64,000 nt of DNA, from positions 10,648,844 through 10,712,843 of the forward strand of contig CM082588.2 of assembly GCA_040954595.2 (NCBI GenBank), in the 5' to 3' direction. Position 1 is the stretch's first letter. Every line of letters starts with the position of its first letter. Shown piece after piece: positions 1 to 47,060 of this stretch. The DNA is from Balanoglossus misakiensis (taxonomy: Eukaryota > Animalia > Hemichordata). The position numbers and the translations under genes are program-made. Under the pieces are notes generated by a model, which saw nothing but the letters and a program-made list of their open reading frames with translations, had not been told where the DNA came from and ran no database searches.

Positions 1-1370
1 ATATCAATGACTTTTATACATTGATGGGCATCACAGATCAGGCAGTGCACAAGTGTGATCGCTCTGTACAAACTGACATGGAGATTGATATTTCAAGAAG
101 CCTGTCAATGTGCAACCCGGAGGTTTTGCGGGATGCTATTGTTAACCCTAGTAGTATTTCTGAACCAGTGCTTTCGATTGACGAGCCAGTAACATGTACC
201 ATTGCCAATGTTGCCTCTGAACACACAGGTTGTTTTGATACCTCTGTTAGCAGGGATAATGTTGACAAATACCTTTGTAAAACTCATACAGTTGATTTGA
301 TAGAACCTGATATTGAGACTGATCTTGACAAGCAAATCCCTATTGAATCACTAGCCCATACCGTCGGTGATACCACTGAATTTGCATGTGAGATTAGCGC
401 TCATGGTTCATCTGACGGTATGATCAGTGATGACCACGATGTCTTTGTTAGTGATATGTTTACTGTGGAAAATGTTCCAAATATGGGGCCTCCCAACCCC
501 ACCCTTGTTGATCACAGTGTTCCAGACACTTATCCACTGGGCAATGATATGCAGTATTCTGAGTTATCAGATACTCCCGTGGGCGGGGATGTCTGTCCCC
601 CGTCGTCATGGCCACAAGGGTCACCCCTTGATTTAAAGCAGAGGTAGATAAGTCTAAACAAGACTCTCATGACTGTGACAGCAATTTAATTCCTAAATTG
701 AACCATAGAGTCAAAAGTGCAGGTACGGAGTGTAATATCAATGACTTTTATACATTGATGGGCATCACAGATCAGGCAGTGCACAAGTGTGATCGCTCTG
801 TACAAACTGACATGGAGATTGATATTTCAAGAAGCCTGTCAATGTGCAACCCGGAGGTTTTGCGGGATGCTATTGTTAACCCTAGTAGTATTTCTGAACC
901 AGTGCTTTCGATTGACGAGCCAGTAACATGTACCATTGCCAATGTTGCCTCTGAACACACAGGTTGTTTTGATACCTCTGTTAGCAGGGATAATGTTGAC
1001 AAATACCTTTGTAAAACTCATACAGTTGATTTGATAGAACCTGATATTGAGACTGATCTTGACAAGCAAATCCCTATTGAATCACTAGCCCATACCGTCG
1101 GTGATACCACTGAATTTGCATGTGAGATTAGCGCTCATGGTTCATCTGACGGTATGATCAGTGATGACCACGATGTCTTTGTTAGTGACATGTTTACTGT
1201 GGAAAATGTTCCAAATATGGGGCCTCCCAACCCCACCCTTGTTGATCACAGTGTTCCAGACACTTATCCACTGGGCAATGATATGCAGTATTCTGAGTTA
1301 TCAGATACTCCCGTGGGCGGGGATGTCTGTCCCCCGTCGTCATGGCCACAAGCGTCACCCCCTGATTTAA
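1..1370 (+). repeat. Internal 734-bp tandem duplication in copy 1 (first unit cut by the window edge)
   Basis: 1-634 recurs at 735-1368; identical small ORFs are offset by 734 (38/772, 105/839, 427/1161). Confidence 0.97.
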
Positions 1371-3037
1371 CAGAAGTTATAACCGTTCATGACATAGTTG
1401 TTGAATCAGGTTTACCAAATTCTCAATTTTGCAGAATACCCGTTTCATCAAATCTTCAAATCCCAATTTGGCGAGCCGAATTGCAGCAATATGATGACAA
1501 AATCATCTGCGATTACCTACAATATGGTTGGCCCGTCTACTATACAGCCTCAGAATTGCCATACTCTACAGTGAAAAACCACCCATCAGCTATAAATTAC
1601 TCGGCGCATGTCGACAACTGGATCATTAACGAAGTCGCAGCCGGGGCTACAGCGGGTCCGTTCTTAACTAACCCCCTTGCCACACCACTCAGTACTTCCC
1701 CCATTCAGACTGTCGAAAAAAAAGATAGTGTTAATCGGCGTATAGTCTTTGATCTTAGTTCCCCAATCCACCATTCAGTAAATGACGGTATCCCCAAAGG
1801 GGAATATCTTGGGGAGAGTTTTCAGCTTCAATATCCTTCCATTGATGATTTCACTGCAATGATGACCCGTAAGGGCAGGGGATGCCTCCTATTTAAGCGC
1901 GATTTAAGCAGAGCTTATCGGCAAATACCAGTCGATCCAGCGGACTACCATTTGCTGGGCTACACGTGGCGTAATTTATTGTTCTTTGACCTTACATTGC
2001 CATTTGGCTTGCGAACCGCAGCGCTAGCCTGCCAGCGCACCACTAATGCGGTTTCTTATATCTATTCCACGAAAGGGTATGACTGTGTTAATTACCTTGA
2101 CGACTTCGGTGGTGCAGAGACCTCCAACAAAGCCCACAAGGCATTTGCGGAGCTAGGTGACACGCTGGATAGACTGGGTTTGCAAGAAGCCAAACACAAA
2201 GCGGTGCCCCCGTCATCAATCATGACTTTTCTTGGAATCCAGTTGAACTCCCTTACAATGACTATGGAAGTTACTCCTGACCGGCTTAATGAAATAGAGC
2301 AAGAGCTGGGTGTATGGGTCACTAAAACAAAAGCAACTAAGCGCGAGCTGCAATCACTCATAGGCAAGCTTTCCTTTATTGCCAAATGTGTCAAGCCTGG
2401 TAGGCTATTCCTGGCGAGAATGCTAGATGTGTTGCGTACCGTCACCCGCAATCACTACCATATCTATCTAAACAGTGATTTCAAGGCAGATCTACGGTGG
2501 TGGATTAATTTCATTAGGGTTTATAATGGGGTGTCTCTCATTAAAGAGTCAGGTTGGTGCCCGCCAGATGAAATATTTTCTTCGGATGCATGCCCAACAG
2601 GGGGAGGGGGGCTTTGCGACAACGAGTATTTCCACGTGGAGTTCCCTGACTTTGTAAAGGTTGGGGACCCTTACATTAATGCCCTCGAATTACTCACTAT
2701 TACTATAGCGGCAAAAATTTGGGGTGATAGATGGTCTGGAAAGAAAATACAGGTCTCTTGCGACAACCAGGCAACAGTTTGGGTCATTAATACCGGTAGA
2801 GCTAGGGATAAACTAATGCTGTCTTGCTTGAGGGAATTATGGCTGGTAGCAGCGATTCACGAGTTTGAGCTACGTGCTGTGCACATCGCAGGCACCGAGA
2901 ACCGGCTGGCTGATGCGCTCAGTCGCTGGCATCTTGACCCAAGTTATGAGCAACTCTTCAAATCATCTGTTAATATTTCTCAAATGACCGAGCACCCAGT
3001 CGCCGAGGATGACATTCGCTTTCTCAATGAGTGGTGA
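698..3037 (+). CDS. Reverse transcriptase + RNase H ORF (open frame; starts at TTG, first ATG at 758)
   Basis: RT motifs RRIVFDLS, KRDLSRAYRQIPV, LPFGLR, YLDD, FLGI; RNase H motifs SDAC, ALELL, CDNQ, NRLADALSR. Confidence 0.95.
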   Translation: MNHRVKSAGTECNINDFYTLMGITDQAVHKCDRSVQTDMEIDISRSLSMCNPEVLRDAIVNPSSISEPVLSIDEPVTCTIANVASEHTGCFDTSVSRDNVDKYLCKTHTVDLIEPDIETDLDKQIPIESLAHTVGDTTEFACEISAHGSSDGMISDDHDVFVSDMFTVENVPNMGPPNPTLVDHSVPDTYPLGNDMQYSELSDTPVGGDVCPPSSWPQASPPDLTEVITVHDIVVESGLPNSQFCRIPVSSNLQIPIWRAELQQYDDKIICDYLQYGWPVYYTASELPYSTVKNHPSAINYSAHVDNWIINEVAAGATAGPFLTNPLATPLSTSPIQTVEKKDSVNRRIVFDLSSPIHHSVNDGIPKGEYLGESFQLQYPSIDDFTAMMTRKGRGCLLFKRDLSRAYRQIPVDPADYHLLGYTWRNLLFFDLTLPFGLRTAALACQRTTNAVSYIYSTKGYDCVNYLDDFGGAETSNKAHKAFAELGDTLDRLGLQEAKHKAVPPSSIMTFLGIQLNSLTMTMEVTPDRLNEIEQELGVWVTKTKATKRELQSLIGKLSFIAKCVKPGRLFLARMLDVLRTVTRNHYHIYLNSDFKADLRWWINFIRVYNGVSLIKESGWCPPDEIFSSDACPTGGGGLCDNEYFHVEFPDFVKVGDPYINALELLTITIAAKIWGDRWSGKKIQVSCDNQATVWVINTGRARDKLMLSCLRELWLVAAIHEFELRAVHIAGTENRLADALSRWHLDPSYEQLFKSSVNISQMTEHPVAEDDIRFLNEW

Positions 3038-4056
3038 CTGATTTTATTTTTATTTCAGATCACTGCCAAACTATCCAAGCCTTAGACGCTCAAATCGCTA
3101 TCTCAATGAGGTCAGCATTAGCGGAAGGAACTCGTCGGAATTTGTCGTCACAGTTGAAGAGTTACTTCCTGTTTTGTCAGTTTTTCAATTTTACTCCTGT
3201 TCCAGCATCTGTTCTTACAGTGTGTAGATTTATCCAGTTTCTTGCAAGATCAGTAACTGCTACTGGCACCATTCAGAATTATTTGTACGCAATTCGTACC
3301 TTGCATAGAATCCATGGCTTCACGCCATTGGCCGCTGATCAGTATGTTGTCAAATTACTTTTGAAATGTCTTTCCCGTAGCACTTTCCAGCCGGTGAGGC
3401 AGAAATTACCCATCACCCCCCAGTTGTTGCTACAGTTTTTCGGGCTTCTAGATGTGGCTGTTCCATTCGATGTTACTTTGTGGGCATGCCTTTTGATAGG
3501 GTTTTTCTCCTTTTTTCGCAAGTCAAATCTTGTTCCGAAGTCTGCAACCGACTTTGATCCGGCTAAACACCTCTGTAGGGGTAAAGTCATTTCCTCAGAT
3601 TCTGGCCTTATAATCGGCGTGACTTGGTCAAAAACCATTCAGTTTCGCGAACGCTGTTTGACTATTCCACTTGCCCGCATTCCAGGTTCGGTGTTGTGCC
3701 CTTTACAGGCATACAATCACATGTGTGAGATCATCCCAGCCCCACCCTCTAGCCCAGCATTTGTTTTTCCCAAATGTGGCAAATTGGTCCCCTTGACCCA
3801 TTCAGGGCTGGTGAAAAGTATCAAATGTTTAGTTCAGAGGGCAGGCTTTCCTGCTGACATGTACTCGGGTCACAGCCTCCGTCGTGGGGGTGCAACCTTT
3901 GCATTCGAAAGTGGGGTCCCTGGGGAGCTTATCAAACTCCAAGGGGATTGGCAATCCAGCGCGTATCTCCGTTATCTTAACATTCCATTTCAGACTCGTT
4001 ATCTGGTGTCCTTTCAAATGGGTCAGCATATTAAAGACATCTCCGCGTCACACTGA
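3031..4056 (+). CDS. Tyrosine recombinase, intact frame; probably entered by splicing at 3059
   Basis: Catalytic set FFRKSNL (R), WSKT (K), GHSLRRGGAT (HxxR), GDWQS, YLRY (Y). Confidence 0.95.
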   Translation: MVTDFIFISDHCQTIQALDAQIAISMRSALAEGTRRNLSSQLKSYFLFCQFFNFTPVPASVLTVCRFIQFLARSVTATGTIQNYLYAIRTLHRIHGFTPLAADQYVVKLLLKCLSRSTFQPVRQKLPITPQLLLQFFGLLDVAVPFDVTLWACLLIGFFSFFRKSNLVPKSATDFDPAKHLCRGKVISSDSGLIIGVTWSKTIQFRERCLTIPLARIPGSVLCPLQAYNHMCEIIPAPPSSPAFVFPKCGKLVPLTHSGLVKSIKCLVQRAGFPADMYSGHSLRRGGATFAFESGVPGELIKLQGDWQSSAYLRYLNIPFQTRYLVSFQMGQHIKDISASH

Positions 4057-4100
4057 TTTTACTGTGGCACTAGCAGAGAGGCGGACCGGGTTTGGCAGTG

Positions 4101-4370
4101 GTTGGGCCTGCAAGAGCCCCCAGTTCACGTAAATAAATAATGGCTCTTGCCTTCAGCTGCCAAACCTGTGTCCTTGGTTTGTGTGTTAGAGAGATCTCAA
4201 GTAATTTAGGTAACATTGCGATCAACGGCATAATGTTACCCAATTAAGCAACTCGAAAAGGGGCGCCCTCAACCTCAAACGAGCCTCAAAAATCCCATAA
4301 TCCATCACTCACGGCCACTTCAAGGGTTCGGAGCGTGTCCTGCAGTGCACGCTCTCTCTGCCTCAATTTC
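4101..4370 (+). repeat. Split direct repeats at the copy1/copy2 junction: B (4101-4206) then A (about 4207-4370)
   Basis: B recurs at 9763-9868 and 10181-10286. A recurs at 9869-10032 with 4 substitutions. Confidence 0.95.
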
Positions 4371-4387
4371 AATTTCTCACCGTTATT

Positions 4388-6304
4388 ATGGAGAACGCTG
4401 AACAACAGCTGCTGGATTTGGGAATAGAGCCCAGTCCAGTCGCCAAAAAGGGACCTGCAACTCGCAGTAAGACTACGACAAGAGCATCGACCGGTCGAAA
4501 AGTTCGCGTGGTCCCCCCCACCAAACTTTCCAAAGTACCAATGGCGTCAGATCGTTCGAAAGGCGGGAAATGTAGCAAACCTGTCAAGGAAGAAGACACT
4601 TCATCTGACGGGGAAGATGTGAGGTCAGAGAAAGAGAAGTTGCAGGCGGAGATAGCGAGACTGCAGGAGCAATCTGAAGTAGACAATTTAAGAAAACAAC
4701 TAAAAGAAATGAAACTGGAGAAGGAACGACGCAGCCCGCCAGCTGCTTCGAGCGGAAGTCCCAGAAGTCACGACCTGAGTCAACTCACGCTACCCGATCT
4801 CAAGAGGATGGCGAAAGAAGACTCACAATTGCAGTGGTCGTTACCATCAGGCAGTCCGTGGCTACCAGCGACAGGGGCCGCTGGTGGCAGTGAAGACCTC
4901 CAACCGAACCAACTCCTGGCACAGTCCGGTTTATACACAGCAGCGCAGAGCAAAGCAGGTAACGTACCAATGAAATCGATGCGGTTCAACACCAGAACCG
5001 ATCGTGTGCGACAGCACGTCCTATGGCCGCACATGTTCGTCAGGGCTCGGACATTCTCGGGCGCCCCACCAAAATTCGATGATATGTCAATGGCGGAATT
5101 TGTGGAAGGTAATCTCGCGATAGTGCAACTTCCTACTTTGAGTGACACAGAGAAACAGCAGCGATTACAACACTTACAGTCGCTTATGAAAGACGCCAAT
5201 TTGTTCCCCTGGGACGCCATCTTGAAGTTCGAGGGCGCGCTCCTCTCTGACATGGAGTCAGGACTCAGAACATGGGCAAATGACACCGCAGATCTGAGAG
5301 AGCTATATTTGCTGCCGCGTATCGGCGAGATCAGACGGGATAAAACAGCGGACAAATCCAAAAAGAAGGATCAGATTAATGTATGTTTCAAATACCAAAG
5401 TAACAAGTGCGAGAAGGAGGATTGCGCATTCAAACACATATGTGAAGCCTGCATGAAGTTGCGTAACAACCTGGCCAAGCATCCCAAGATTGCCAGCCCC
5501 TGGAAGGATAAGGCCTTTAGAGAGCAAGAGAGCAACAAGTTGACCGATAGTTCTGGCAAAGCAGAGGTAGATAAGTCTAAACAAGACTCTCATGACTGTG
5601 ACAGCAATTTAATTCCTAAATTGAACCATAGAGTCAAAAGTGCAGGCACGGAGTGTAATATCAATGACTTTTATACATTGATGGGCATCACAGATCAGGC
5701 AGTGCACAAGTGTGATCGCTCTGTACAAACTGACATGGAGATTGATATTTCAAGAAGCCTGTCAATGTGCAACCCGGAGGTTTTGCGGGATGCTATTGTT
5801 AACCCTAGTAGTATTTCTGAACCAGTGCTTTCGATTGACGAGCCAGTAACATGTACCATTGCCAATGTTGCCTCTGAACACACAGGTTGTTTTGATACCT
5901 CTGTTAGCAGGGATAATGTTGACAAATACCTTTGTAAAACTCATACAGTTGATTTGATAGAACCTGATATTGAGACTGATCTTGACAAGCAAATCCCTAT
6001 TGAATCACTAGCCCATACCGTCGGTGATACCACTGAATTTGCATGTGAGATTAGCGCTCATGGTTCATCTGACGGTATGATCAGTGATGACCACGATGTC
6101 TTTGTTAGTGATATGTTTACTGTGGAAAATGTTCCAAATATGGGGCCTCCCAACCCCACCCTTGTTGATCACAGTGTTCCAGACACTTATCCACTGGGCA
6201 ATGATATGCAGTATTCTGAGTTATCAGATACTCCCGTGGGCGGGGATGTCTGTCCCCCGTCGTCATGGCCACAAGCGTCACCCCTTGATTTAAAGCAGAG
6301 GTAG
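4388..6304 (+). CDS. ORF1 (Gag-like, coiled coil plus Cys/His zinc finger), terminated at the 734-bp duplication junction
   Basis: ATG just after repeat A; charged coiled-coil segment; VCFKYQSNKC...CAFKHICEAC...H finger; continues in frame into the N-terminal part of the RT ORF. Confidence 0.85.
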   Translation: MENAEQQLLDLGIEPSPVAKKGPATRSKTTTRASTGRKVRVVPPTKLSKVPMASDRSKGGKCSKPVKEEDTSSDGEDVRSEKEKLQAEIARLQEQSEVDNLRKQLKEMKLEKERRSPPAASSGSPRSHDLSQLTLPDLKRMAKEDSQLQWSLPSGSPWLPATGAAGGSEDLQPNQLLAQSGLYTAAQSKAGNVPMKSMRFNTRTDRVRQHVLWPHMFVRARTFSGAPPKFDDMSMAEFVEGNLAIVQLPTLSDTEKQQRLQHLQSLMKDANLFPWDAILKFEGALLSDMESGLRTWANDTADLRELYLLPRIGEIRRDKTADKSKKKDQINVCFKYQSNKCEKEDCAFKHICEACMKLRNNLAKHPKIASPWKDKAFREQESNKLTDSSGKAEVDKSKQDSHDCDSNLIPKLNHRVKSAGTECNINDFYTLMGITDQAVHKCDRSVQTDMEIDISRSLSMCNPEVLRDAIVNPSSISEPVLSIDEPVTCTIANVASEHTGCFDTSVSRDNVDKYLCKTHTVDLIEPDIETDLDKQIPIESLAHTVGDTTEFACEISAHGSSDGMISDDHDVFVSDMFTVENVPNMGPPNPTLVDHSVPDTYPLGNDMQYSELSDTPVGGDVCPPSSWPQASPLDLKQR

Positions 6305-7027
6305 ATAAGTCTAAACAAGACTCTCATGACTGTGACAGCAATTTAATTCCTAAATTGAACCATAGAGTCAAAAGTGCAGGCACGGAGTGTAATATCAATG
6401 ACTTTTATACATTGATGGGCATCACAGATCAGGCAGTGCACAAGTGTGATCGCTCTGTACAAACTGACATGGAGATTGATATTTCAAGAAGCCTGTCAAT
6501 GTGCAACCCGGAGGTTTTGCGGGATGCTATTGTTAACCCTAGTAGTATTTCTGAACCAGTGCTTTCGATTGACGAGCCAGTAACATGTACCATTGCCAAT
6601 GTTGCCTCTGAACACACAGGTTGTTTTGATACCTCTGTTAGCAGGGATAATGTTGACAAATACCTTTGTAAAACTCATACAGTTGATTTGATAGAACCTG
6701 ATATTGAGACTGATCTTGACAAGCAAATCCCTATTGAATCACTAGCCCATACCGTCGGTGATACCACTGAATTTGCATGTGAGATTAGCGCTCATGGTTC
6801 ATCTGACGGTATGATCAGTGATGACCACGATGTCTTTGTTAGTGATATGTTTACTGTGGAAAATGTTCCAAATATGGGGCCTCCCAACCCCACCCTTGTT
6901 GATCACAGTGTTCCAGACACTTATCCACTGGGCAATGATATGCAGTATTCTGAGTTATCAGATACTCCCGTGGGCGGGGATGTCTGTCCCCCGTCGTCAT
7001 GGCCACAAGCGTCACCCCCTGATTTAA
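5558..7027 (+). repeat. Internal 734-bp tandem duplication in copy 2
   Basis: aaagcagaggtagataag occurs at 5558 and 6292; the junction gatttaa/aaagcag has short A microhomology. Confidence 0.97.
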
Positions 7028-8698
7028 CAGAAGTTATAACCGTTCATGACATAGTTGTTGAATCAGGTTTACCAAATTCTCAATTTTGCAGAATACCCGT
7101 TTCATCAAATCTTCAAATCCCAATTTGGCGAGCCGAATTGCAGCAATATGATGACAAAATCATCTGCGATTACCTACAATATGGTTGGCCCGTCTACTAT
7201 ACAGCCTCAGAATTGCCATACTCTACAGTGAAAAACCACCCATCAGCTATAAATTACTCGGCGCATGTCGACAACTGGATCATTAACGAAGTCGCAGCCG
7301 GGGCTACAGCGGGTCCGTTCTTAACTAACCCCCTTGCCACACCACTCAGTACTTCCCCCATTCAGACTGTCGAAAAAAAAGATAGTGTTAATCGGCGTAT
7401 AGTCTTTGATCTTAGTTCCCCAATCCACCATTCAGTAAATGACGGTATCCCCAAAGGGGAATATCTTGGGGAGAGTTTTCAGCTTCAATATCCTTCCATT
7501 GATGATTTCACTGCAATGATGACCCGTAAGGGCAGGGGATGCCTCCTATTTAAGCGCGATTTAAGCAGAGCTTATCGGCAAATACCAGTTGATCCAGCGG
7601 ACTACCATTTGCTGGGCTACACGTGGCGTAATTTATTGTTCTTTGACCTTACATTGCCATTTGGCTTGCGAACCGCAGCGCTAGCCTGCCAGCGCACCAC
7701 TAATGCGGTTTCTTATATCTATTCCACGAAAGGGTATGACTGTGTTAATTACCTTGACGACTTCGGTGGTGCAGAGACCTCCAACAAAGCCCACAAGGCA
7801 TTTGCGGAGCTAGGTGACACGCTGGATAGACTGGGTTTGCAAGAAGCCAAACACAAAGCGGTGCCCCCGTCATCAATCATGACTTTTCTTGGAATCCAGT
7901 TGAACTCCCTTACAATGACTATGGAAGTTACTCCTGACCGGCTTAATGAAATAGAGCAAGAGCTGGGTGTATGGGTCACTAAAACAAAAGCAACTAAGCG
8001 CGAGCTGCAATCACTCATAGGCAAGCTTTCCTTTATTGCCAAATGTGTCAAGCCTGGTAGGCTATTCCTGGCGAGAATGCTAGATGTGTTGCGTACCGTC
8101 ACCCGCAATCACTACCATATCTATCTAAACAGTGATTTCAAGGCAGATCTACGGTGGTGGATTAATTTCATTAGGGTTTATAATGGGGTGTCTCTCATTA
8201 AAGAGTCAGGTTGGTGCCCGCCAGATGAAATATTTTCTTCGGATGCATGCCCAAAAGGGGGGGGGGGGGGGGCTTTGCGACAACGAGTATTTCCACGTGG
8301 AGTTCCCTGACTTTGTAAAGGTTGGGGACCCTCACATTAATGCCCTCGAATTACTCACTATTACTATAGCGGCAAAAATTTGGGGTGATAGATGGTCTGG
8401 AAAGAAAATACAGGTCTCTTGCGACAACCAGGCAACAGTTTGGGTCATTAATACCGGTAGAGCTAGGGATAAACTAATGCTGTCTTGCTTGAGGGAATTA
8501 TGGCTGGTAGCAGCGATTCACGAGTTTGAGCTACGTGCTGTGCACATCGCAGGCACCGAGAACCGGCTGGCTGATGCGCTCAGTCGCTGGCATCTTGACC
8601 CAAGTTATGAGCAACTCTTCAAATCATCTGTTAATATTTCTCAAATGACCGAGCACCCAGTCGCCGAGGATGACATTCGCTTTCTCAATGAGTGGTGA
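6355..8698 (+). pseudogene. RT-RNase H of copy 2, frameshifted (+4) in the G run at 8257-8272
   Basis: Matches 698-3037 except a few SNPs and G16 replacing gggggagggggg. Confidence 0.85.
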
Positions 8699-9718
8699 CT
8701 GATTTTATTTTTATTTCAGATCACTGCCAAACTATCCAAGCCTTAGACGCTCAAATCGCTATCTCAATGAGGTCAGCATTAGCGGAAGGAACTCGTCGGA
8801 ATTTGTCGTCACAGTTGAAGAGTTACTTCCTGTTTTGTCAGTTTTTCAATTTTACTCCTGTTCCAGCATCTGTTCTTACAGTGTGTAGATTTATCCAGTT
8901 TCTTGCAAGATCAGTAACTGCTACTGGCACCATTCAGAATTATTTGTACGCAATTCGTACCTTGCATAGAATCCATGGCTTCACGCCATTGGCCGCTGAT
9001 CAGTATGTTGTCAAATTACTTTTGAAATGTCTTTCCCGTAGCACTTTCCAGCCAGTGAGGCAGAAATTACCCATCACCCCCCCCGTTGTTGCTACAGTTT
9101 TTCGGGCTTCTAGATGTGGCTGTTCCATTCGATGTTACTTTGTGGGCATGCCTTTTGATAGGGTTTTTCTCCTTTTTTCGCAAGTCAAATCTTGTTCCGA
9201 AGTCTGCAACCGACTTTGATCCGGCTAAACACCTCTGTAGGGGTAAAGTCATTTCCTCAGATTCTGGCCTTATAATCGACGTGACTTGGTCAAAAACCAT
9301 TCAGTTTCGCGAACGCTGTTTGACTATTCCACTTGCCCACATTCCAGGTTCGGTGTTGTGCCCTTTACAGGCATACAATCACATGTGTGAGATCATCCCA
9401 GCCCCACCCTCTAGCCCAGCATTTGTTTTTCCCAAATGTGGCAAATTGGTCCCCTTGACCCATTCAGGGCTGGTGAAAAGTATCAAATGTTTAGTTCAGA
9501 GGGCAGGCTTTCCTGCTGACATGTACTCAGGTCACAGCCTCCGTCGTGGGGGTGCAACCTTTGCATTCGAAAGTGGGGTCCCTGGGGAGCTTATCAAACT
9601 CCAAGGGGATTGGCAATCCAGCGCGTATCTCCGTTATCTTAACATTCCATTTCAGACTCGTTATCTGGTGTCCTTTCAAATGGGTCAGCATCTTAAAGAC
9701 ATCTCCGCGTCACACTGA
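8692..9718 (+). pseudogene. YR of copy 2, frameshifted (+1) in the C run at 9077-9084
   Basis: ORFs 8692-9219 and 9086-9718 together match 3031-4056; C8 replaces cccccca. Confidence 0.85.
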
Positions 9719-9762
9719 TTTTACTGTGGCACTAGCAGAGAGGCGGACCGGGTTTGGCAGTG

Positions 9763-10286
9763 GTTGGGCCTGCAAGAGCCCCCAGTTCACGTAAATAAAT
9801 AATGGCTCTTGCCTTCAGCTGCCAAACCTGTGTCCTTGGTTTGTGTGTTAGAGAGATCTCAAGTAATTTAGGTAACATTGCGATCAACGGCATAATGTTA
9901 CCCAATTAAGCAACTCGAAAAGGGGCGCCCTCAACCTCAAACGAGCCTCAAAAATCCCATAATCCATCACTCACGACCACTTCAAGGGTTCTGAGCGTGT
10001 CCTGCAATGCTCGCTCTCTCTGCCTCAATTTCCCCACCCGCCCGCCCTCAACAAATAAGATGTGTATTTGCAGATTTACAGTGGTTCTCTGGTCAATACT
10101 GTACTTCACGATTGTAACCTTTTTCATCCATGTATTTTGCAATGGTCCTTTCATCATTGCGAGTTGTTATTCCCAGTTGTGTTGGGCCTGCAAGAGCACC
10201 CAGTTCACATAAATAAATAATGGCTCTTGCCTTCAGCTGCCAAACCTGTGTCCTTGTTTTGTGTGTTAGAGAGATCTCAAATAATT
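9763..10286 (+). repeat. 3' split direct repeats B1 (9763-9868), A2 (9869-10032), unique spacer, B2 (10181-10286)
   Basis: Direct sequence comparison; each B contains AATAAA followed by a GT-rich tract. Confidence 0.95.
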
Positions 10287-13200
10287 GGGGAAAATCATTA
10301 AAAAATGACAAATTATCGACTTTGCAAAATCTCACAATTTCGTCGATTTTTGAAAAAAACCATTGGGGGAAAATCATCAAAAAATGACAAATTATCGACT
10401 TTGCAAAATCTCAACATTTCGTCGATTTTTGAAAAAAATCATGGGTGAAAATCATCAAAAAATGACAAATTTTCGACTTTGCAAAATCTCAAAATTTCGT
10501 CGATTTTTGAAAAAAATCATGGGAGAAAATCATCAAAAAATGACAAATTTTCGACTTTGCAAAATCTCAACATTTCGTCGATTTTTGAAAAAAATCATAG
10601 GTGAAAATCATCAAAAAATGACAAATTTTTGACTGCAAAATCTCAACATTTCGTCGATTTTTGAAAAAAATCATGGATGAAAATCATCAAAAAATGACAA
10701 ATTTTCGACTTTGCAAAATCTCAACATTTCGTCGATTTTTGAAAAAAATCTTGGGTGAAAATCATCAAAAAATGACAAATTTTCGACTTTGCAAAATCTC
10801 AACATTTCGTCGATTTTTGAAAAAAATCATGGGTGAAAATCATCAAAAAATGACAAATTTTCGACTTTGCAAAATCTCAAAATTTCGTCAATTTTTGAAA
10901 AAATCATGGGTGAAAATCATCAAAAAATGACAAAATTTTCGACTTTGCAAAATCTCAAAATTTCGTCGATTTTGAAAAAAATCATAGGTTCGTCTTTTTT
11001 TTTAAAAAAAAAACATGGATGAAAATCATCAAAAAATGACAAATTTTTGACTTTGCAAAATCTCACAATTTCGTCGATTTTTGAAAAAAATCATGGGTGA
11101 AAATCATCAAAAAATGACAAATTTTCGACTTTGCAAATTCTCAAAATTTCGTCGATTTTAAAAAAAAACATGGGGGAAAATCATCAAAAAATGACAAATT
11201 ATCGACTTTGCAAAATCTCACAATTTCGTCGATTTTTGAAAAAAATCATGGGTGAAAATCATCAAAAAATGACAAATTTTCGACTTTGCAAAATCTCAAC
11301 ATTTCGTCGATTTTTGAAAAAAATCATGGGTGAAAATCATCAAAAAATGACAAATTTTCGACTTTGCAAAATCTCAAAATTTCGTCCATTTTTGAAAAAA
11401 AATCATGGGTAAAAATCATCAAAAAATGACAAATTTTCGTCTATGCAAAATCTCAAAATTTCGTCGGTTTTTGAAAAATAATATGGTTGAAAATCATCAA
11501 AAAATGACAAAATTATCGACTTTGCAAAATCTCACAATTTCGTCGATTTTTGAAAAAAATCATGGGTGAAAATCATCAAAAAATGACAAATTTTCGACTT
11601 TGCAAAATCTCAAAATTTCGTCGATTTAAAAAAAAATCATAGGTTCGTCGATTTAAAAAAAAACATGGGTGAAAATCATCAAAAAATGACAAATTTTCGA
11701 CTTTGCAAAATCTCACAATTTCGTCGATTTTTGAAAAAAATCATGGGAGAAAATCATCAAAAAATGACAAATTTTCGACTTTGCAAAATCTCAACATTTC
11801 GTCGATTTTTGAAAAAAATCATTGGGGAAAATCATCAAAAAATTACAAATTTTCGACTTTGCAAAATCTCAAAATTTCGTCGATTTTGAAAAAAATCATA
11901 GGTTCGTCGTTTTTTTAAAAAAAAAACATGGGTGAAAATCATCAAAAAATGACAAATTTTTGACTTTGCAAAATCTCACAATTTCGTCGATTTTTTAAAA
12001 AAATCATGGGTGAAAATCATCAAAAAATGACAAATTTTCGACTTTGCAAAATCTCAAAATTTCGTCCATTTTAAAAAAAAAACATGGGGGAAAAACATCA
12101 AAAAATGACAAATTTTCGACTTTGCAAAATCTCAAAATTTCGTCGATTTTGAAAAAAACCATTGGGGGAAAATCATCAAATAATGACAAATTATCGACTT
12201 TGCAAAATCTCACAATTTCGTCAATTTTTGAAAAAATCATGGGTGAAAATCATCAAAAAATGACAAAATTTTCGACTTTGCAAAATCTCAAAATTTCGTC
12301 GATTTTGAAAAAAATCATAGCTTCGTCTTTTTTTTAAAAAAAAAACATGGATGAAAATCATCAAAAAATGACAAATTTTTGACTTTGCAAAATCTCACAA
12401 TTTCGTCGATTTTTGAAAAAAATCATGGGTGAAAATCATCAAAAAATGACAAATTTTCGACTTTGCAAATTCTCAAAATTTCGTCGATTTTAAAAAAAAA
12501 CATGGGGGAAAATCATCAAAAAATGACAAATTATCGACTTTGCAAAATCTCACAATTTCGTCGATTTTTGAAAAAAATCATGGGTGAAAATCATCAAAAA
12601 ATGACAAATTTTCGACTTTGCAAAATCTCAACATTTCGTCGATTTTTGAAAAAAATCATGGGTGAAAATCATCAAAAAATGACAAATTTTCGACTTTGCA
12701 AAATCTCAAAATTTCGTCCATTTTCGAAAAAAAATCATGGGTAAAAATCATCAAAAAATGACAAATTTTCGTCTATGCAAAATCTCAAAATTTCGTCGGT
12801 TTTTGAAAAATAATATGGTTGAAAATCATCAAAAAATGACAAAATTATCGACTTTGCAAAATCTCACAATTTCGTCGATTTTTGAAAAAAATCATGGGTG
12901 AAAATCATCAAAAAATGACAAATTTTCGACTTTGCAAAATCTCAAAATTTCGTCGATTTAAAAAAAAATCATAGGTTCGTCGATTTAAAAAAAAACATGG
13001 GTGAAAATCATCAAAAAATGACAAATTTTCGACTTTGCAAAATCTCACAATTTCGTCGATTTTTGAAAAAAATCATGGGAGAAAATCATCAAAAAATGAC
13101 AAATTTTCGACTTTGCAAAATCTCAACATTTCGTCGATTTTTGAAAAAAATCATTGGGGAAAATCATCAAAAAATTACAAATTTTCGACTTTGCAAAATC

Positions 13201-14215
13201 TCAAAATTTCGTCGATTTTGAAAAAAATCATAGGTTCGTCGTTTTTTTAAAAAAAAAACATGGGTGAAAATCATCAAAAAATGACAAATTTTTGACTTTG
13301 CAAAATCTCACAATTTCGTCGATTTTTTAAAAAAATCATGGGTGAAAATCATCAAAAAATGACAAATTTTCGACTTTGCAAAATCTCAAAATTTCGTCCA
13401 TTTTAAAAAAAAAACATGGGGGAAAAACATCAAAAAATGACAAATTTTCGACTTTGCAAAATCTCAAAATTTCGTCGATTTTGAAAAAAACCATTGGGGG
13501 AAAATCATCAAATAATGACAAATTATCGACTTTGCAAAATCTCACAATTTCGTCGATTTTTGAAAAAAATCATGGGTGAAAATCATCAAAAAATTACAAA
13601 TTTTCGACTTTGCAAAATCTCAACATTTCGTCGATTTTTGAAAAAAATCATGGGTGAAAATAATCAAAAAATGACAAATTTTCGACTTTGCAAAATCTCA
13701 AAATTTCGTCCATTTTAAAAAAAAAACATGGGGGAAAATCATCAAAAAATGACAAATTTTCGACTTTGCAAATTCTCAAAATTTCGTCGATTTTGAAAAA
13801 AACCATTGGGGGAAAATCAACAAAAAATGACAAATTATCGACTTTGCAAAATCTCACAATTTCGTCGATTTTTGAAAAAAATCATGGGTGAAAATCATCA
13901 AAAAATGACAAATTTTCGACTTTGCAAAATCTCAACATTTCGTCGATTTTTGAAAAAAATCATGGGTGAAAATCATCAAAAAATGACAAATTTTCGACTT
14001 TGCAAAATCTCAAAATTTCGTCCATTTTTGAAAAAAAATCATGGGTTAAAATCATCAAAAAATGACAAATTTTCGTCTTTGCAAAATCTCAAAATTTCGT
14101 CCATTTTAAAAAAAAAACATGGGTGAAAATCATCAAAAAATTACAAATTTTCGACTGCAAAATTTCAAAATTTCGTCGGTTTTTGAAAAATAATATGGGT
14201 GAAAATCATCAAAAA
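10284..14215. repeat. Satellite A, ~78-bp AT-rich monomer, left array
   Basis: Consensus catgggtgaaaatcatcaaaaaatgacaaattttcgactttgcaaaatctcaaaatttcgtcgatttttgaaaaaaat; a 1332-bp block is duplicated (11131/12463, 11665/12997, 12044/13376). Confidence 0.98.
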
Positions 14216-19167: not shown

Positions 19168-22100
19168 TCAAGTGAATTGGCTGGGGTGAATGGCTGCATA
19201 CACGGCCTTGTGATCAGACCATGAGTTTTCTATTGTGTCATAGGTAGTTGTGAAGAAGTTAAGAAAAATTAAGTCCAGAGCAGAATGCTGATCAGTTGTT
19301 TCTTCCTTTATTAGTTGCCGACAGTTACAAATTGATGTCATAAAGTGGAGGAAAGCAGTACTGGTATTAGGTAGTAGAATGTCAAAATTAAAGTCACCCA
19401 TTATTAATATTGGTTTTGTCAAATCTAGTAGTGGCAGGAGATACTGTTGAAATTGTTGTTTGAATGTGTGGATTGTGCACTGAGGGGATTTATAGATCAT
19501 AATGATTTGAAGTAGTTTATTTTGAATTAGGATGTTGGCTTTTATAAATTCGAACACTTTTGTTGAATGGCACTTGATATGAATCACTTGATATGAATCT
19601 TTGACATACAATACAAGACCATGATAGGGTCTTGTGAAATTTACAGCAGTGTTGTCAATATGCACATCTTGGTCATTCCTGAATAGTAGATAATTTGGGA
19701 GATTGTAGGCTTCATTGGTATCATTAGTTGTTAATCTGGATTCAGCAATTCCGATAACATCAGCAGCAATTATATTGTGGTCACTGCATAAATCTGCAAA
19801 ATGTTTATGGAGTGATCTAGCGTTTTGATATACTACTTTGCAGTGGTCATGAGGGAGGGCATATAATGGTTTGAAGCATAATTGAAGTTGGCTGTCATCA
19901 CGGAGTCTTTTCATTTCATTGTGAACTGCTTCAGATATTGCGATTTTATTTTTATTCAACTCCAGTATCTGAAGTCCACTTATTGTACGCACTCTACTTA
20001 TTGCGACATAATGTATATGGTCAATTTTTCTTGTACCCATATGGATTATTACCTTATCAAGTGTATCACCCTGAGATTTGTGAATAGTTTTTGCAGCAGA
20101 CGGTCTAAGTGGAAATTGAATTCTCATGACAGATACATGTTTGTAATATTTACTGGTAGGAAACTGGCGTTTAATGTCAAATATTGGAGTCAATTGTTTA
20201 CCAATTTCTGGTTGATGCAAATGTTTGTATTTATGTCTTCTTAATAGACCAACATTTTTATCATCAAATTGAACCCAAATTATACTGGGGCGGTTGTTTG
20301 ATGTTCCTGTCATTCTGTGGTCTATTTGTTGCACTACACAACTGGCACCATTTGTCATACCATCCTCAACATCAACATTGGCAGTGAGATCATATCGCAG
20401 TCCAACAGCTATAGGTGCTTGTGATAATAAACCGCATGTTTTGGATGGATCTTTTGGAATGGTCTTCAAAAGCTGTGCTTTCACTTGTTGTGAGACATCA
20501 CCAATAACTGTGTCCAGTGCTGGTACAACAAGTTTATGGGATGTAGCATTTTGGTAAACTTTATCATTATGTGACTCTACCATTGCATTGGTGGTGTATA
20601 AATGAGGAATGGACTCGTTGAGTGGTTGATCATGAGATATTACATAGTTTTGCAATTCAGAAATATCTTCATCTGTGTGCCTCCCTTCTCTCAATCTATT
20701 CAATAGTTGAGCAAAGTCTTCATCATCTTTCTGTCTCATGATCTGTGTTAGTTCATGCATGGTGAAATGTTCTTTCCACAGATTAGTTGCTAATGGGCCA
20801 TACTCTTTTGTTAGGTCTTTGAATATCCAGCCATCCATTACTGGTTTGAGTTGAAATAAATCACCAACAGTTATCATTGAAACACCACCAAATACTTGAT
20901 TGTTACCTTTTATTTGTTGAAGTCGGAGATTTATGAAATTTAAAAGCTCATGGCCTACCATGCTGATTTCATCAATGATTACAACTGATAAATGTTGATA
21001 TTTACTTCGCAAAGTATTAAGTTTATCGCTATCCAGTGGTTTGTATTTATAACCTTGACTTGCAGGTACTTTGAAAGCTGCATGAATAGTACTACCATTG
21101 ATATGATAGGCTGCTTTACCAGTTGGCGCACATAACAATAAACGACAGTCGAGTGGTGATTCACCAGCAATTGAACACAGATAGCGATGTAATGCCTGAT
21201 ATATTGCTCGGATTACAACTGACTTTCCTGTACCAGCACCCCCTGTGATAAATATATGCATTGGATCATGATTTGTCTTGACTGATTTCAAAACATGATG
21301 AAATATTTCCCTTTGTTTTACATTGAGAGATCTCACAAGTTTGTGATATTGTTCATCAGGGATACGTCCTGGGACGTTGCTGGTGTCATCAGTGGTGACA
21401 GTCGTATTCATACCAATGTCAACACCTATATCATAAGTGGTATGTTCTGGTTGGTCATCAGGTTGAAAGTATATGAAATGATCATTTGGTGTAGTAGTTC
21501 CTTCTTCTAGATCATCTCTCTCAGCATGTTGCGTATTTGGAGCAATCTGATCAAATGCATTTAAATCATCATTATCAAGTTGCTCTGCAGCTGTAGTGGC
21601 TTGATCTATCAACTCTGAATTATGTTCATACTTATCTATGGTTTGTGCAATAATGTGTTTGTTATGATTATAAGATTCTTGAAAGGTGGCACAACTGTTT
21701 AGAAGGTCAGAGCTTTCATTTCTCCATGGCATGTACAGCAACAATTTTTCACGACAGTAATTTTCATAGTCAACTTTCTTACTATAATTGACATAGCGTA
21801 TTATACACGGATTTACACGTTCTTGTATTTTCATACCATTTTTGAGAATGATATTTATTTTACTTGTCATATTGTCAGATTCTGAGTCCACACCTAAATC
21901 AGGGTCATCATGATCATCATCATTTATATCTTGTGGATAATTATCAGTGCATTTGGTTGAATATGTGACTCTAAGTTTAGATGCATAATCTGCAAGACAC
22001 CAATTTTCTAATGCTTTTGGCCGTCTAGCATAACGTTTGATTAGATTGTCACTTTCTATGTCAGTAGATTCTGCTGGTGTATTTTCAAGGGCAGTTTTGC

Positions 22101-25100
22101 TTTTGAGCAGGAATGTTCTTTGATCAGGTGGTGATGTGTTTATAAATACCACTTGTCTTGTAGCTTTAGTAAGTGACAACTGCAGGATGATGTAAGCAGC
22201 CTCTTGTGCACTGATTTCTACATTGTTAAGGAATTTATTTCCAATATGTCTGACCTGTGCTTTCAGTTCCATATTGCCTTTTCTGGCTTCTTTGCATGCT
22301 TGGTCAAGTAATGCACTCATGCCTCTTTGGGATTTACTGATATAGGATACAATGTACATGGCACAGGCGTATGGATCTAAAACAAACTGTAGATCATGAT
22401 TTGCTCCCCATGCAGACAATAATAATTTCATGTAGGCATTGACACGTAAATCACTTGGTTCTCTTTTGAGAAATATTGTGGTAGTTTTGAGTGAACTCTG
22501 AATGCATTTTATGTATTCATCATGACTGATTTGCAGCTCAGTAGATAGGAAGTCATCATATGATATTGGTTTGCCTTCTTTCATATCATCCAGTTTTTGT
22601 TTGATTTCTTCATATTTCTGTTTGTAATGTTGTTCTTCATCTGGATCAGCATTTAATGGTGAGAGAATCATTGTTTCTGACATAGGAGGCATTGGGTATC
22701 CAAAACGACATACAGGTTTGCCTTTTACTCGGCATGTCTTAGAGTGCTTATGTGTCTGCAGATTCAATACTTCAGCCATTTCACTTGGTACATTGGAAGA
22801 ACAAGATACATATATGTCAATGAAATCAATCACTTCTGTTGGTGTGTTTTGTTGATAATTTGGTGCATTCTCAATCCACATTAGCATATGGATGTGTGGT
22901 GAGCCACGTTGTTGAAATTCCACTCTGTAGAAGTAATCAGTGATTTTGCCCAATGGATCACATGGACCTCTAAGTACTGTATTGATGAATTCATGAATTC
23001 TGTGGTCAAAGAAACGAGCACATGTCACTGGGTCAGATTGAAGTAACCTGGACTTTGTAGCCCAATCCATGGCTTTAAGTTCATCAGCAGTATATTTCTT
23101 ACCATCTACAAGTGTACCCAGTATTTGATGTAAGTCAATCCACTTTGTGTCAGCACTAGACAGAGAACAAAACCATGTTGGTAAACCAAGTTGTCTAATC
23201 ATTGCAAATACATCTTTCTTCCTCTTTTCTAGATAGGGTGGTGAATTGCGCAAATCTCTGAATATGTAAAATCCGTCATCAAGTCTAAGTAAATCACTTA
23301 CTCTTTCTGGATTTAATAAATCTGCAACTTTGTAAGTTCTGCCTTCAGTTTTACATCGTCTCAATGCAAGGTGGACTTTACTACTGATCTGTTTTAACTG
23401 CAGTTTCTTCACTTTGAAAAACATATTTGGTACAGAGTTTGCAACGCGTCTATCAACATTACGCAATTCCCATTTACAAACATCACTGTAATGTACATTT
23501 GAGGTGTGGATTTGATCAATATTTCTGCGTTGTCCACAGAATATAGTTGGAAAGGCTAGATATTCTGCATCTGTATCATTGAACAGACTAAGAGGGCGTT
23601 GACCTTCACCAGGGGCAAATGTTAAAATTTGATTACGATAATCTGAATCATCAAGTAAAGTGTCCATATTAGCAACAGCTCCCTCTGCTGGATCAACCTC
23701 ACTGAATTTATCAGAATCAGAATCTGATTCAGATTCAGGATCATCAGCTTGCTCTTGTTCAGTGTTTGTATTTTCAATAAATACAGCCATATCATTATCT
23801 GTGTTTTCAAATTCCTGAGACCAGTTGTGATTAATTGGAATACCTGAATTTTGGTACAAAACACTGTTTTTCATGAGCCACACAAGTGCTGCCATCACTT
23901 TATTTGGTCGAATATTTTCTGTAAATTCACTTCGCGTGTACGATAGTTTTCGTTTCAGTTTGACTGGTATAGTAGCTGAATCATCTAGCATTCTTGGCAG
24001 AGCATTAACAGTAGGGGTGATATCTGTTGGAATATTGACTACCGGACCAGATAATGACCTTTGACCTCCACGTGGCAAACTGCACATATGCATGAATGGA
24101 ATTCTGAGTGCTATCAATCTTTCTTCCAAAGGGTGCAACTGTAACTGTGGTGGAATATCAGGGAAATTAACATTATTAGCTATAGACAATCTGGGGATTT
24201 TACCAGCAGATATGGATCTGTAGCATGTGTTACACACCCACTCTATATTGTCAACAGAAGTGTATGCAGTCAAACATTTTGATGCAATGCCTCGTTCAGA
24301 TAATTTGGCAGCAGGAGTAACAGATTTTCTGAACCAAGTTTGATGACATGATGAGCAGACATAGACAGGGCCTTGTGATACAGTTCTATGAAATATATTT
24401 ATGCATGCCTGCAACGATTCCCCGCATAATTGTCGGGTCTCAAAACCTCTATGTTTGCTAAAACCATTGTGTGTAACATGTTGTTTTTTGTCAATTTGAA
24501 ATGTTTGAATTTTTTCACTGCATTTCACAAACTTCTTTTGTAAGTTTTCTTTTTTTCTGAAGTTTCTATCCTGTCTCTTCATTTTTCTGTAGATCTGTTG
24601 CTTTTTGTTTTCGTGCTCTTTGAAGGTTTTACTTTTGCGTGAAGTCTTGATACGTGCCTGTGACTGTATTTTCTCATTTTGTCGAAATGTGGAATTTTGA
24701 CGCAGACTTTTAATGTGTTCTTTCAGTTTTGGCTTTTCTTTTTCTCGGAATGCAGGATTTTGACGCAAAGTTTTAATGTGTGCTTTAAATTTCACCTTTT
24801 CTTTCTCTCGGAATGCAGGATTTTGACGCAGAGTTTGCTTGTGTGAGTTTAATTTCACCTTTTCTTTCTCTCGGAATGCAGGATTTTGACGCAGAGTTTG
24901 CTTGTGTGAGTTTAATTTCACCTTTTCTTTCTCTCGGAATGCAGGATTTTGACGCAGAGTGTTAATGCGTGATTTCAATTTGACCTTCTCTTTCTCTCGG
25001 AATACAGGATTTTGACGCAGAGTTTGCTTGTGTGAGTTTAATTTCACCTTCTCTTTCTCTCGGAATGCAGGATTTTGACGCAGAGTGTTAATGCGTGATT

Positions 25101-43619: not shown

Positions 43620-46600
43620 ATGTGGAAAGAACTGATTTCGGAGTTTGTTGAAAGAAATACACGAACATCGCGAACATCGCACACATACACATGCACATAC
43701 TACTTCTCCAGCGACGATGCAGACAGCAGACATGGCGACGGGAAGAAACAGGTAGAGAAACGGAACGCTCCGCGCACGAGGACGAGGAACAGGCTTCTCC
43801 AGCCATCGACTACCGCCAGGACAAAAGGTAAAAGAATAAAAAGTGGCGCCAAGAGGAAACCAACAGACAGGGTTCTCATGTACATACCATGGCCACACAA
43901 ATAAATCCGAGACCCCAACCCGCACAAACCAGAGGCAATTACTTATGATGAATTGACTTTACCACAGCTGGTATCGGGTGAACTGAATCTATCTATATAT
44001 CTACCTTACTGGCCAACTTCAACATATTGAAGGCTTTGCCAGTGAGTGCACCCTATAGTACAGGACATCAAAAATGTCAGTTTTCTGGTTTGGTGAAGTG
44101 TAGTGCCAAAGAAGATTTGAAGGATTCATGTGACATCATATTAGGGATGAGTTTAGATAATGCTTCCACTGTCAATCGTTTAGCAAACTTGCAAAACATT
44201 GTCACTGACGCTCAGTTGTATTCTTGGGAGAGGGTCCGTAAATACCACTCAATAATTATTTTACAATACCTTGAGCAGGGGTTGTTGGTGTGGGGCGACG
44301 ATTTTGACAACCTGCATACCAGATTCGTCAGAAACCCTCCCCAAATTAGTGTGGATCAACCAGTTAAGCCTAGCGCTAAGAAAAACCGTCACTCTCGCTA
44401 TTGCTCTGCCTTTCAAGATCACAAATGTAGCCAAATCTCTGATCATGTAGTGGAGGGCAAATTGGAAAAGCATGTCTGCTCCGCCTGTTTGCGCTTTAGG
44501 CATTAGGAAACACGGCATGCTTCCACAGATTGCCCCTTTAACGATAAAGAATTCAGGGACGAAACACCAAAAAAACCCAGGGAATGGCCTGCAGCACCAG
44601 GGGGAGAGGGGATTTTCCAAGATGTAGCAGAATCTGGCTCATGTAACAGTATAGCTGATCAGCCTTTTTGTTATGTAGGTTTTTCACCTGACCTTTCAAA
44701 CTTTGTAAATGGTGTAGCTTTTGATGCTCACAATTTGTATTGCCACATTTCTGTACTTTTCGACTGTGCCCTCTCGCATCATGTTCTAGCAAAGGCTATA
44801 TCAGGTACCAAGACCTTCCAGTACCAGGAATTTTTAGTACCCACCGTTGTTGACACTCCACTTCTTCCAGTTATTCCGGCCTGGGTCCCCCCACACACGA
44901 CTGATTGGCCCCCATGTTCGCCAGTTTCACACGAGTAGGTCCTACAAGCGCACAGGACAGTTTTCACTTCCGGAAAACCAAACTTTGCCGGAGTGCGTAT
45001 CCCTGTTCCCATTGCACTAAACATTCCAGCATGGCGAGCCAGACTTCCTGACAGGCACAGCGGAATTATAGTTGACTTTCTTGAATTTGGTTGGCCCATC
45101 AATTTCACTGGTAATTGCTTGCCACTTGCTAGCAGGCGCAACCATAGATCCGCCTTGCAATTTGCTCACCATGTTGATGCCTTCGTTAGCACTGAAGTTA
45201 GTCTAAAGGCCACCGCTGGACCATTCGCATCTAACCCACATACTATGCCAGTGGCTACTTCCCCGCTCTCCTCAGTCCCGAAGAAGGGGTCTCCGTATAG
45301 GCGTATTATAATGGATCTCAGTTTTCCCATCTCTAGTTCTGTCAATGCAGGTTTTTCAGCATTGACCTTCCTGCAGCAGCCTTTCCAGCTCCGCTACCCC
45401 AATATTGACACGCTGGTCGCGATTATCAGAGATTTGGGTCCCGGTTGTCTCTTGTTTAAACTAGACTTGAGTAGGGCTTACAGACAATTGCCAGTGGATC
45501 CCCACGACTTTCACCTGTTGGGTTATACATGGCGAGATTCGCTCTTTATTGATCTCCGTTTGCCATTTGGGTTGCGCTCCGCGGCGCTTGCATGTCAGGC
45601 CACCACGAACACCGTGATTGCCATGTACCATAATCTGGGTTTTCGCGCAGTCAATTATTTTGGATGACTTTTGCGGCGCAGACACCCCTATACGGGCCCA
45701 GTCCGCCTTTTTAGCTTTGCGGTCTCTTCTCTCTGAATTAGGTCTACAGGAAGCCTTTGGTCAAGCTGTAACCCCCACAACTTGTCTCTCGTTTTTAGTC
45801 ACAGAGGACAGGCTCACTGAGCTTTCAGAGCTTCTTGCTCATTGTTCAGGCAGGAAAAATGCCACTAGACGTCAGTTGCAGGTCCTTATCGGCAAGCTTT
45901 CATTTGTCTCTAGCTGTGTTCGTGCAGGCCGTCTTTTTATTAGCCGCATGCTTGACACGCTACGTTCTGTCCAGTCAGCGCGGCATCACATTTACTTAAA
46001 CGTGCAGTTCCAGAAAGATATCAGTTGGTGGATCTCTTTTCTTAGGCAATATAACGGCGTTTCGATTATTCCGGAACTGGTCTGGTCCACACCTAACAGC
46101 GTTATTTGTACAGATGCTTGCCTTTCAGGATGTGGTGGAATCTCAGCCTCACAGTATTTCCATGCCCCATTCCCAGATTTTGTCTTGCAGCAGCAACAGC
46201 CTATCCATTGCCTTGACATGCTCACCATCGTAGTGGCGGCCAGACTTTGGGGTGACAAATGGACAGGCCTGCGCATTCTAGTCATCAGCGACAACAGCAG
46301 CATGGTACAGGTTCTTAACACCGGCCGCGGTCGCGACCCCTTTCTCATGTCAGCCGCGCGCGAACTTTGGTTTATTGCAGCGACACATCAGTTCGAGCTG
46401 AAAGCGCGCCTATCTTCCTGGCGCTCAGAACAGCATTGCCGATTGCTTGTCACGCTGGCATTTGGACCGCAAGTACCGCGACACCTTTGCCTCACTCACA
46501 GGAGATAAACTTCTTGAAGAAACTCGTCCTTCAGAAGCATTGTTTTCACTAAACGTCTTATTTTAATTTATTTGCAGCTGTGCAGCAAGATCTGGAGTTA

Positions 46601-47060
46601 TTAAGACAAGAGGTCAAGAACTCCCGGCTAGCAGCCTTTCGTCCCGGTACGCTCAGGAACCTGAATATTCAGTTCCGCTCCTATATAAGTTTTGCACTTC
46701 ACTACGGTTTGTAAGCGGTGCCTACAACGTCCACGGTTTTGGCGCTTTATGCCCAGTTTCTTAGCAGGTCGTTTAGTAGTCCTGCATCCGTTACCAATTA
46801 TATTGCGGGTGTCAAGACACTTCATATACTGACCGGCCACAGCCTGAAACCTTTCGAATGCCTGGGTTTCAAATTGGCGCTCACAGGCATCAGAAAAAGC
46901 AGTGTCCACACACCTTCTCAGAAGTTGCCTTTGACAGTTCCCATGTTGGAGGAAATTGGCAACTATTATTGATCTTTCCAACAAGTTTCATTTAACAGTT
47001 TGGTGCGCTGTTTTAATTGGCTTCTTTGCCTTTTTGAGGAAATCGAACTTGGTTCCTCCC
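43620..47060 (+). mobile_element. Degenerate Ngaro-type YR retrotransposon of a second, diverged family; both ends lost
   Basis: ORF1 remnant (TDRV...WPH; YC...C...HVCSAC...H), RT (KLDLSRAYRQLPV, LPFGLRSA, frameshifted YxDD), RNase H (TDAC, SDN) and YR N-terminal half (GTLRNL...LRKSNLVP), with stops and frameshifts. Confidence 0.9.

Follow-up and report, generated by a model that had tools for sequence, protein, structure and literature searches.

The 64,000-nt window of Balanoglossus misakiensis DNA analysed here contains two tandem copies, A and B (99.5% alike), of a tyrosine-recombinase (YR) retrotransposon, whose open reading frames (ORFs) all lie on the forward strand in the order ORF1 (Gag-like, ATG 4388), reverse transcriptase (RT; RVT_1), RNase H and YR. 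Comparison with its relatives makes it very probable that the full-length RNA of this Ngaro-like element is used in two ways: unspliced, for Gag, RT and RNase H and as the copying template, and spliced, for a protein of about 520 amino acids (aa) in which the N-terminal part of Gag is fused to the recombinase, Gag(N)-YR. A single RNA would start from repeat A, and a phase-1 donor within the Gag-like ORF would be joined to a phase-1 acceptor located past the RNase H stop, giving the Gag N-terminus followed by the whole YR. Splicing would be the normal source of the recombinase, and the spliced RNA, which would keep the terminal repeats, might sometimes be reverse-transcribed in trans. Most tentatively of all, the common N-terminus could bring the recombinase to Gag particles or to the nucleus. 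A spliced ORF1(N)-YR fusion had been proposed in the initial annotation of the window, and it is now supported by the conserved phase and position of the splice sites, by a codon bias at the donor, by one joined genomic copy and by RefSeq gene models.

The positions and phases first assigned to the two sites were borne out (Table 1). The donor GT at 4959 lies 571 nt (190 codons + 1) past ATG 4388, and the acceptor, ...tttttatttcag/AT, has its AG at 3057-3058 in copy A and at 8718-8719 in copy B, in phase 1 of the YR frame. The segment between donor and acceptor contains the Gag core, a zinc-finger-like region, RT and RNase H. A second, decayed family (family 2), which spans about 43.6-47.1 kb of the window, has the pair GT 43828 and AG 46576-46577, again both in phase 1 as annotated; the spacing from Gly to TDRV is 13 codons in the main family against 12 in family 2, the acceptor is 71 nt upstream of a conserved Thr (codon 25) in both, and family 2 has no ATG between the acceptor and this Thr.

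The 522-aa fusion originally described (190 + 332 aa) is open when exon 1 of copy B is joined to the YR of copy A, whereas the product of the in-cis join 4959..8719 stops after 356 aa because the copy B YR is frameshifted near 9076-9083. The homopolymer frameshifts of copy B (C-run in YR, G-run in RNase H) may be assembly errors. The unspliced ORF1-RT-RNase H product of the initial annotation did not hold as one open frame in the window, owing to the RNase H frameshift of copy B and to an internal duplication of 734 bp, also present in copy A (window 1-1370). Once the duplication is discounted, ORF1 and RT/RNase H are in one frame without an intervening stop. This single frame is likely the normal form of the element, since a contig closing on itself in the public runs X1/X2 (one sample, possibly the source of the window DNA) has a unit of 4923 nt, as would an element free of the duplication. 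The duplication junction (6288-6294) reads T TTA AAG, a slippery-like heptamer that is probably due to chance, because the X1/X2 unit length fits the duplication-free element.

Relatives were fetched as the best 80 of 380 confirmed metagenome loci plus 26 genome-contig loci. No count includes the 13 prokaryote-like loci (L094-L106); the other 93 were kept together with three window entries; the YR N-terminus was present in 91 loci and sufficient upstream DNA in 88. Near-identical loci were merged into families, 74 for the acceptor and 40 for the donor, among which the median YR identity is 38%. Acceptors were ranked by a simple, frame-blind score (T/C tract plus YAG), taking the best AG 20-110 nt from the conserved Thr, and donors by the best GT at most 75 nt from an anchor placed by a Gag-core profile. 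None of 18 candidates from viral contigs was a relative. Loci L081-L092 are animal-type Ngaro elements inside bacterial genome bins of GTDB, most likely through host contamination.

The initial annotation had suggested comparing the position and phase of both sites in related elements, and both are conserved. The best acceptor is in phase 1 in 80 of the 88 loci, mostly 59-71 nt upstream of the conserved Thr, and in 67 of the 74 families (one row, L089, is a joined copy and not an acceptor); the best donor is in phase 1 in 37/40 families. An acceptor score of at least 12 was reached in 63/88 loci, against 1-8 of 68-87 in four upstream control windows; in four further control windows inside the T-rich YR gene it was reached in 11-41 of 89-91, with phase 1 in at most 42/89. 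The binomial p for the acceptor phase is 1e-24, a value that overstates independence since the families share ancestry. In 43 of 64 families the YR frame is closed by a stop in the 60 nt preceding the acceptor, and in none of the 64 by one in the 60 nt that follow it; because of this asymmetry the YR coding frame is predicted to begin at the acceptor AG. In most families the acceptor is directly past the RNase H stop, and therefore no coding sequence is lost. A third phase-matched acceptor, before RT, was not seen in 43 families: the best acceptors there fell 18/13/12 in phases 1/0/2, with a median score of 11.5 against 11.0-11.4 in controls, although the 315-nt search window is wide and could mask a minority.

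The acceptor region also bears on whether YR is a separate translation product, made through an internal promoter or through re-initiation at ATG 3106, with the T-rich tract serving as a spacer. This ATG is in frame in the window family, and some in-frame ATG is found in 30/74 families; however, the other 44 have none, no ATG occurs at least 12 codons before the anchor in 50/74, and family 2 lacks one too. Moreover, a start at ATG 3106 would cut the first predicted helix of the YR model (residues 2-11), within which this ATG lies. Separate translation is thus very improbable.

A different route has been published: a passage of PMC13003380 quoting Poulter and Butler 2015 holds that the Ngaro YR ORF is probably expressed by a programmed frameshift in a -1 overlap. 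Such a -1 ribosomal frameshift at the end of RT/RNase H would make the splice-like sites incidental. The window YR is indeed in the -1 frame with a slight RNase H overlap, and a -1 overlap is found in 22/71 families. The window overlap is, however, 4 nt long and without a slippery heptamer, and a -1 overlap combined with such a heptamer occurs in 2/71 families only; of the families without a -1 overlap, 19 have a stop separating same-frame ORFs, 12 show no overlap, 17 overlap in +1 and one is continuous. Both explanations address how the last ORF is translated, but frame and overlap vary among the 71 families whereas the splice phase is fixed, which frameshifting leaves unexplained. For the window element we regard it as extremely improbable and, judging from these sequences, it cannot be the general route to the recombinase.

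At the donor, the median score is 7.25 compared with 4.5-5.5 in nine control windows. Control windows internal to gag also favour phase 1 (24/39, 27/40 and 27/39), so that the donor phase alone is weak evidence, and for this reason a codon test was run. Gly-Lys pairs at the donor use GGT in 24/27 cases, against 96/262 elsewhere (Fisher p 1.3e-7), and the adjacent glycine of the xSG motif, a few codons past the donor, uses GGT in 12/24. Since the bias affects the Gly-Lys of the site and not the neighbouring glycine, the constraint at the donor is taken to act on nucleotides. Of the 33 loci with donor and acceptor in order, 27 have them in compatible phases, and the introns of the relatives measure 2.1-3.1 kb. 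By their conservation across families, the predicted sites exceed chance.

A copy of the kind that spliced RNA would leave was found in CBDCUS010000007.1 (L089), which carries a full element plus, at the contig start, a joined gag-YR copy. Its first 88 bases correspond to gag (3154-3241, 94%) and its bases 85-473 to YR (5704-6092, 99%). Excision of a GT..AG segment running from 3240 to 5705 would account for the join, and the donor of this segment is the one that the donor scan had selected earlier. This is what reverse transcription of a spliced RNA would produce. An exact 12-mer search for more joined copies gave chance-like matches only; a substitution kept it from recovering even the L089 join. 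The same contig has, at 2120-2145 and upstream of the gag region, a strong acceptor-like tract followed 3 nt later by an ATG, so that the L089 family might have an intron in its 5' leader.

Gene models were also examined. The predicted fusion aligns in one piece with XP_077986280.1 (residues 1-515, 59%), a RefSeq 'integrase/recombinase xerD homolog' of Glandiceps talaboti that is without the Gag core; exon 1 has 44% identity to its N-terminus over 155 aa. This protein is an automatic gene model with no origin annotated. Among 261 proteins with the YR N-terminus, 60 carry at least 60 extra residues; 25 of these contain RT/RNase H and 35 neither RT/RNase H nor the Gag core. RefSeq models of amphioxus, hemichordates, scallop and mussels make up 20 of the 35 leader-only proteins, and the leader has been shown to be ORF1 only for XP_077986280.1. 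Two Ptychodera flava RefSeq isoforms have leaders that are 72- and 171-aa lengths of one sequence, before a common YR exon. RefSeq isoforms are made only from transcript alignments; if this rule holds, the pair would be indirect RNA support for splicing. Among the contig-derived proteins examined (Logan, ENA, JGI), no Gag(N)-YR fusion could be recognised. Two RNA runs (X21, X4) gave 0 element reads on window 1400-5550 and hence have no bearing on splicing.

The two P. flava leader lengths would also suit a variant in which the acceptor is real and its main partner is another donor, either the in-phase GT 5109 or one in a 5' non-coding leader, so that the leader differs from the 190 aa proposed. 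GT 4959 and GT 5109 score equally, and ATG 3106 of the window family could be used by a non-coding leader. Nevertheless, GT 4959 immediately precedes the xSG/WP(H) Gag motif, which is where most relatives have their best donor; use of 5109 would bring in the Gag core, which is missing from the Glandiceps model; and the 44/74 families already mentioned have no ATG for a non-coding leader. We consider this variant unlikely.

Several points, in addition to the phase preference inside gag, weigh against a spliced Gag(N)-YR. No junction read was found, and X1/X2 show the unspliced form only. The window donor is of middling strength, has no +5 G and ties with the in-phase GT 5109 and with the phase-0 GT 5381; the splice scores are consensus heuristics of our own. 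ATG 3106 offers the window family an in-frame start. The L089 join falls within a 4-nt AGGT microhomology, its copy has a second deletion of 83 nt that is not GT..AG and also lies at a 4-nt microhomology, and it is one locus of 88. Finally, gene predictors join RT/RNase H to YR as well (25 of the 60 N-terminally extended proteins), which makes the gene models weak evidence.

As for what the leader does, it is poorly conserved and often has a coiled-coil-like stretch. A crude coiled-coil score reached 8 in 7/34 exon-1 regions and in 0/34 Gag cores, and a short helix motif was present in 7 exon-1 regions and 1 Gag core, differences that are suggestive only; a two-copy complex prediction for exon 1 residues 70-155 scored 0.01. 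Association with Gag is the simplest guess, made because these elements have neither a protease nor an integrase in Pol, according to part of PMC3783388; the leader may only supply a start codon. An animal Ngaro programme can be imagined in which one RNA would give Gag, Pol by fusion or UGA-C readthrough, and the recombinase only as spliced Gag(N)-YR, the Gag half replacing protease-released packaging as the means of bringing the enzyme to the particle or target; we give this wider scheme slightly less than an even chance.

Separately, gag and pol were found to share a frame and to be separated by a single stop in 23/37 families (L003, L004, L011, L028, L030, L031, L036, L044 and L089 among others). 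This stop is TGA-C in 22 of the 23, several of them reading TGACTAG, a readthrough context. TGA-C ends 3/73 RNase H frames and 3/68 YR frames, and the window family has no such stop between gag and pol. A literature search on gag-pol stop readthrough in such elements returned no relevant match.

Table 1. Predicted features of the retrotransposon copies and of family 2 in the window
Feature	Position	Strand	Remarks
Copy A	5'-cut, runs to 4370	+	upstream tandem copy
RT + RNase H of copy A	1397-3037	+	intact
Predicted 3' splice site, copy A	3042..3058	+	phase 1; 21 nt past RNase H stop
YR exon of copy A	3059..4056	+	intact, 332 aa, Cre-like tyrosine recombinase
Repeat B1 of copy A	4095..4206	+	100% identity to 9757-9868
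Copy B	4207-10286	+	downstream tandem copy
Repeat A (A1 of copy B = A2 of copy A)	4207..4370	+	97.6% identity to 9869-10032
Predicted exon 1 (Gag-like ORF1 N-terminus)	4388..4958	+	190 codons + 1 nt; coiled-coil-like stretch
Predicted 5' splice site GTAACG	4959..4964	+	phase 1; context GCAG/GTAACG
Predicted intron	4959..8719	+	3761 nt; 3027 nt discounting duplication
Internal tandem duplication, 734 bp	5558..7027 (5558-6293 / 6292-7027)	+	shifts ORF1-RT frame
RT + RNase H of copy B	7054..8698	+	RVT_1, E 1.2e-7; frameshift at G-run near 8257-8272
Predicted 3' splice site, copy B	8703..8719	+	T-rich tract + CAG; phase 1
YR exon of copy B	8720..9718	+	frameshift at C-run near 9076-9083
3' split direct repeats of copy B	9757..10286	+	B1 9757-9868, A2 9869-10032, B2 10174-10286
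Family 2 predicted donor GTAAAA	43828..43833	+	phase 1; context AAAG/GTAAAA
Family 2 predicted acceptor ...tttgcag/CT	46561..46577	+	AG 46576-46577; phase 1
Family 2 YR fragment	46578..47057	+	stop codon, frameshift, ends at about half length

In its structure the element fits a Ngaro-like retrotransposon of the order DIRS, as defined in the parts of PMC9210276, PMC4157794 and PMC3266345 that deal with this group. It has split direct repeats (A1-[ORFs]-B1-A2-B2), gag-like, RT/RNase H and YR frames co-oriented in this order with the repeats downstream of YR, 21 nt between the RNase H stop and the YR exon, no methyltransferase (no Dam match in the RT ORF) and a Cre-like recombinase with intact catalytic residues. 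These residues (R145, K183, H263-x-x-R266, W289 and Y297) are invariant in the YR alignment; Cre is the best solved relative (E 2e-10), the structure model is confident (pLDDT 91.6), and the closest protein, at 72% identity in YR, is a RefSeq model from a hemichordate. ORF1 has no Pfam match and its label 'Gag-like' rests on position, as in the papers; an SGNH hydrolase ORF is absent from the window element. The placement relies on repeats, ORF order and absence of the methyltransferase, the RT/RNase H tree including relatives only and having weak deep support. PAT-like elements combine split direct repeats with a methyltransferase, of which only the repeats are present here, although one derived Pat1-like lineage is also without methyltransferase, so that this character is not absolute (PMC4157794, in the part concerning that lineage). 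A DIRS-like assignment was rejected: it requires inverted terminal repeats, an internal complementary region and a methyltransferase, and the element has direct repeats instead, with no inverted repeat of at least 60 nt.

Elements with the same ORF order, repeats, lack of methyltransferase and Cre-like YR appear in excerpts of PMC9210276, PMC3783388, PMC8547959, PMC4157794 and PMC3266345; no excerpt mentions splicing, a term absent altogether from PMC9210276, PMC3783388, PMC8547959 and PMC3266345. For a newt Ngaro-like element expressed in testis, Bou1Like1, a portion of PMC13003380 gives a longest ORF with the recombinase at its C-terminus. A spliced Gag-YR was found undescribed in the full-text literature searched; subscription papers, Repbase notes and most supplements were outside its scope, and an earlier mention is therefore possible. 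Spliced subgenomic RNAs are used for retroviral and gypsy env, for foamy-virus pol and for the Drosophila copia gag RNA. There, likewise, one promoter gives an unspliced genomic RNA and a spliced RNA by which an ORF is reached or separated, and the mark of such splicing, a conserved and phase-matched donor and acceptor, is present here. In retroviruses the integrase is inside Gag-Pol and is released by a protease. The Ngaro-like element differs in that its integrating enzyme lies outside Pol and would instead be joined to the first half of Gag; YR elements have no protease, according to part of PMC3783388.

Other repeats surround the element. On the reverse strand, window 19168-26799 holds an open 2543-aa Helitron frame with OTU-like (Herpes_teg_N), Rep, PIF1 helicase and endonuclease-like C-terminal regions and an internal 63/126-bp repeat at 24694-25359. 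Arrays of a 78-bp satellite and a 133-bp satellite of more than 100 copies occupy parts of 10286-14215, 31546-38477 and 50498-64000, one 78-bp array beginning right at repeat B2 of the element. The flanks of family 2 (42770-43400 and 47100-48690) contain an integrase-like fragment of a long terminal repeat (LTR) element, recognised by eye, and a LINE-like 3' end with zf-RVT and poly(A), which truncates the family 2 YR.

Translation of the third ORF of YR retrotransposons has so far been a matter of guesswork, with frameshifting as the guess. Spliced subgenomic RNA is known in other retroelements, and a spliced Gag(N)-YR in Ngaro-like elements is likely to be new. If splicing is true, the real recombinase would be about 200 aa longer than annotated, and biochemistry and mobilisation assays would need the fusion and retained splice sites. 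It would also explain the joined copies without RT and how the recombinase is delivered to the cDNA in an element with neither a protease nor an integrase in Pol, and it would replace the published guess for the whole group.

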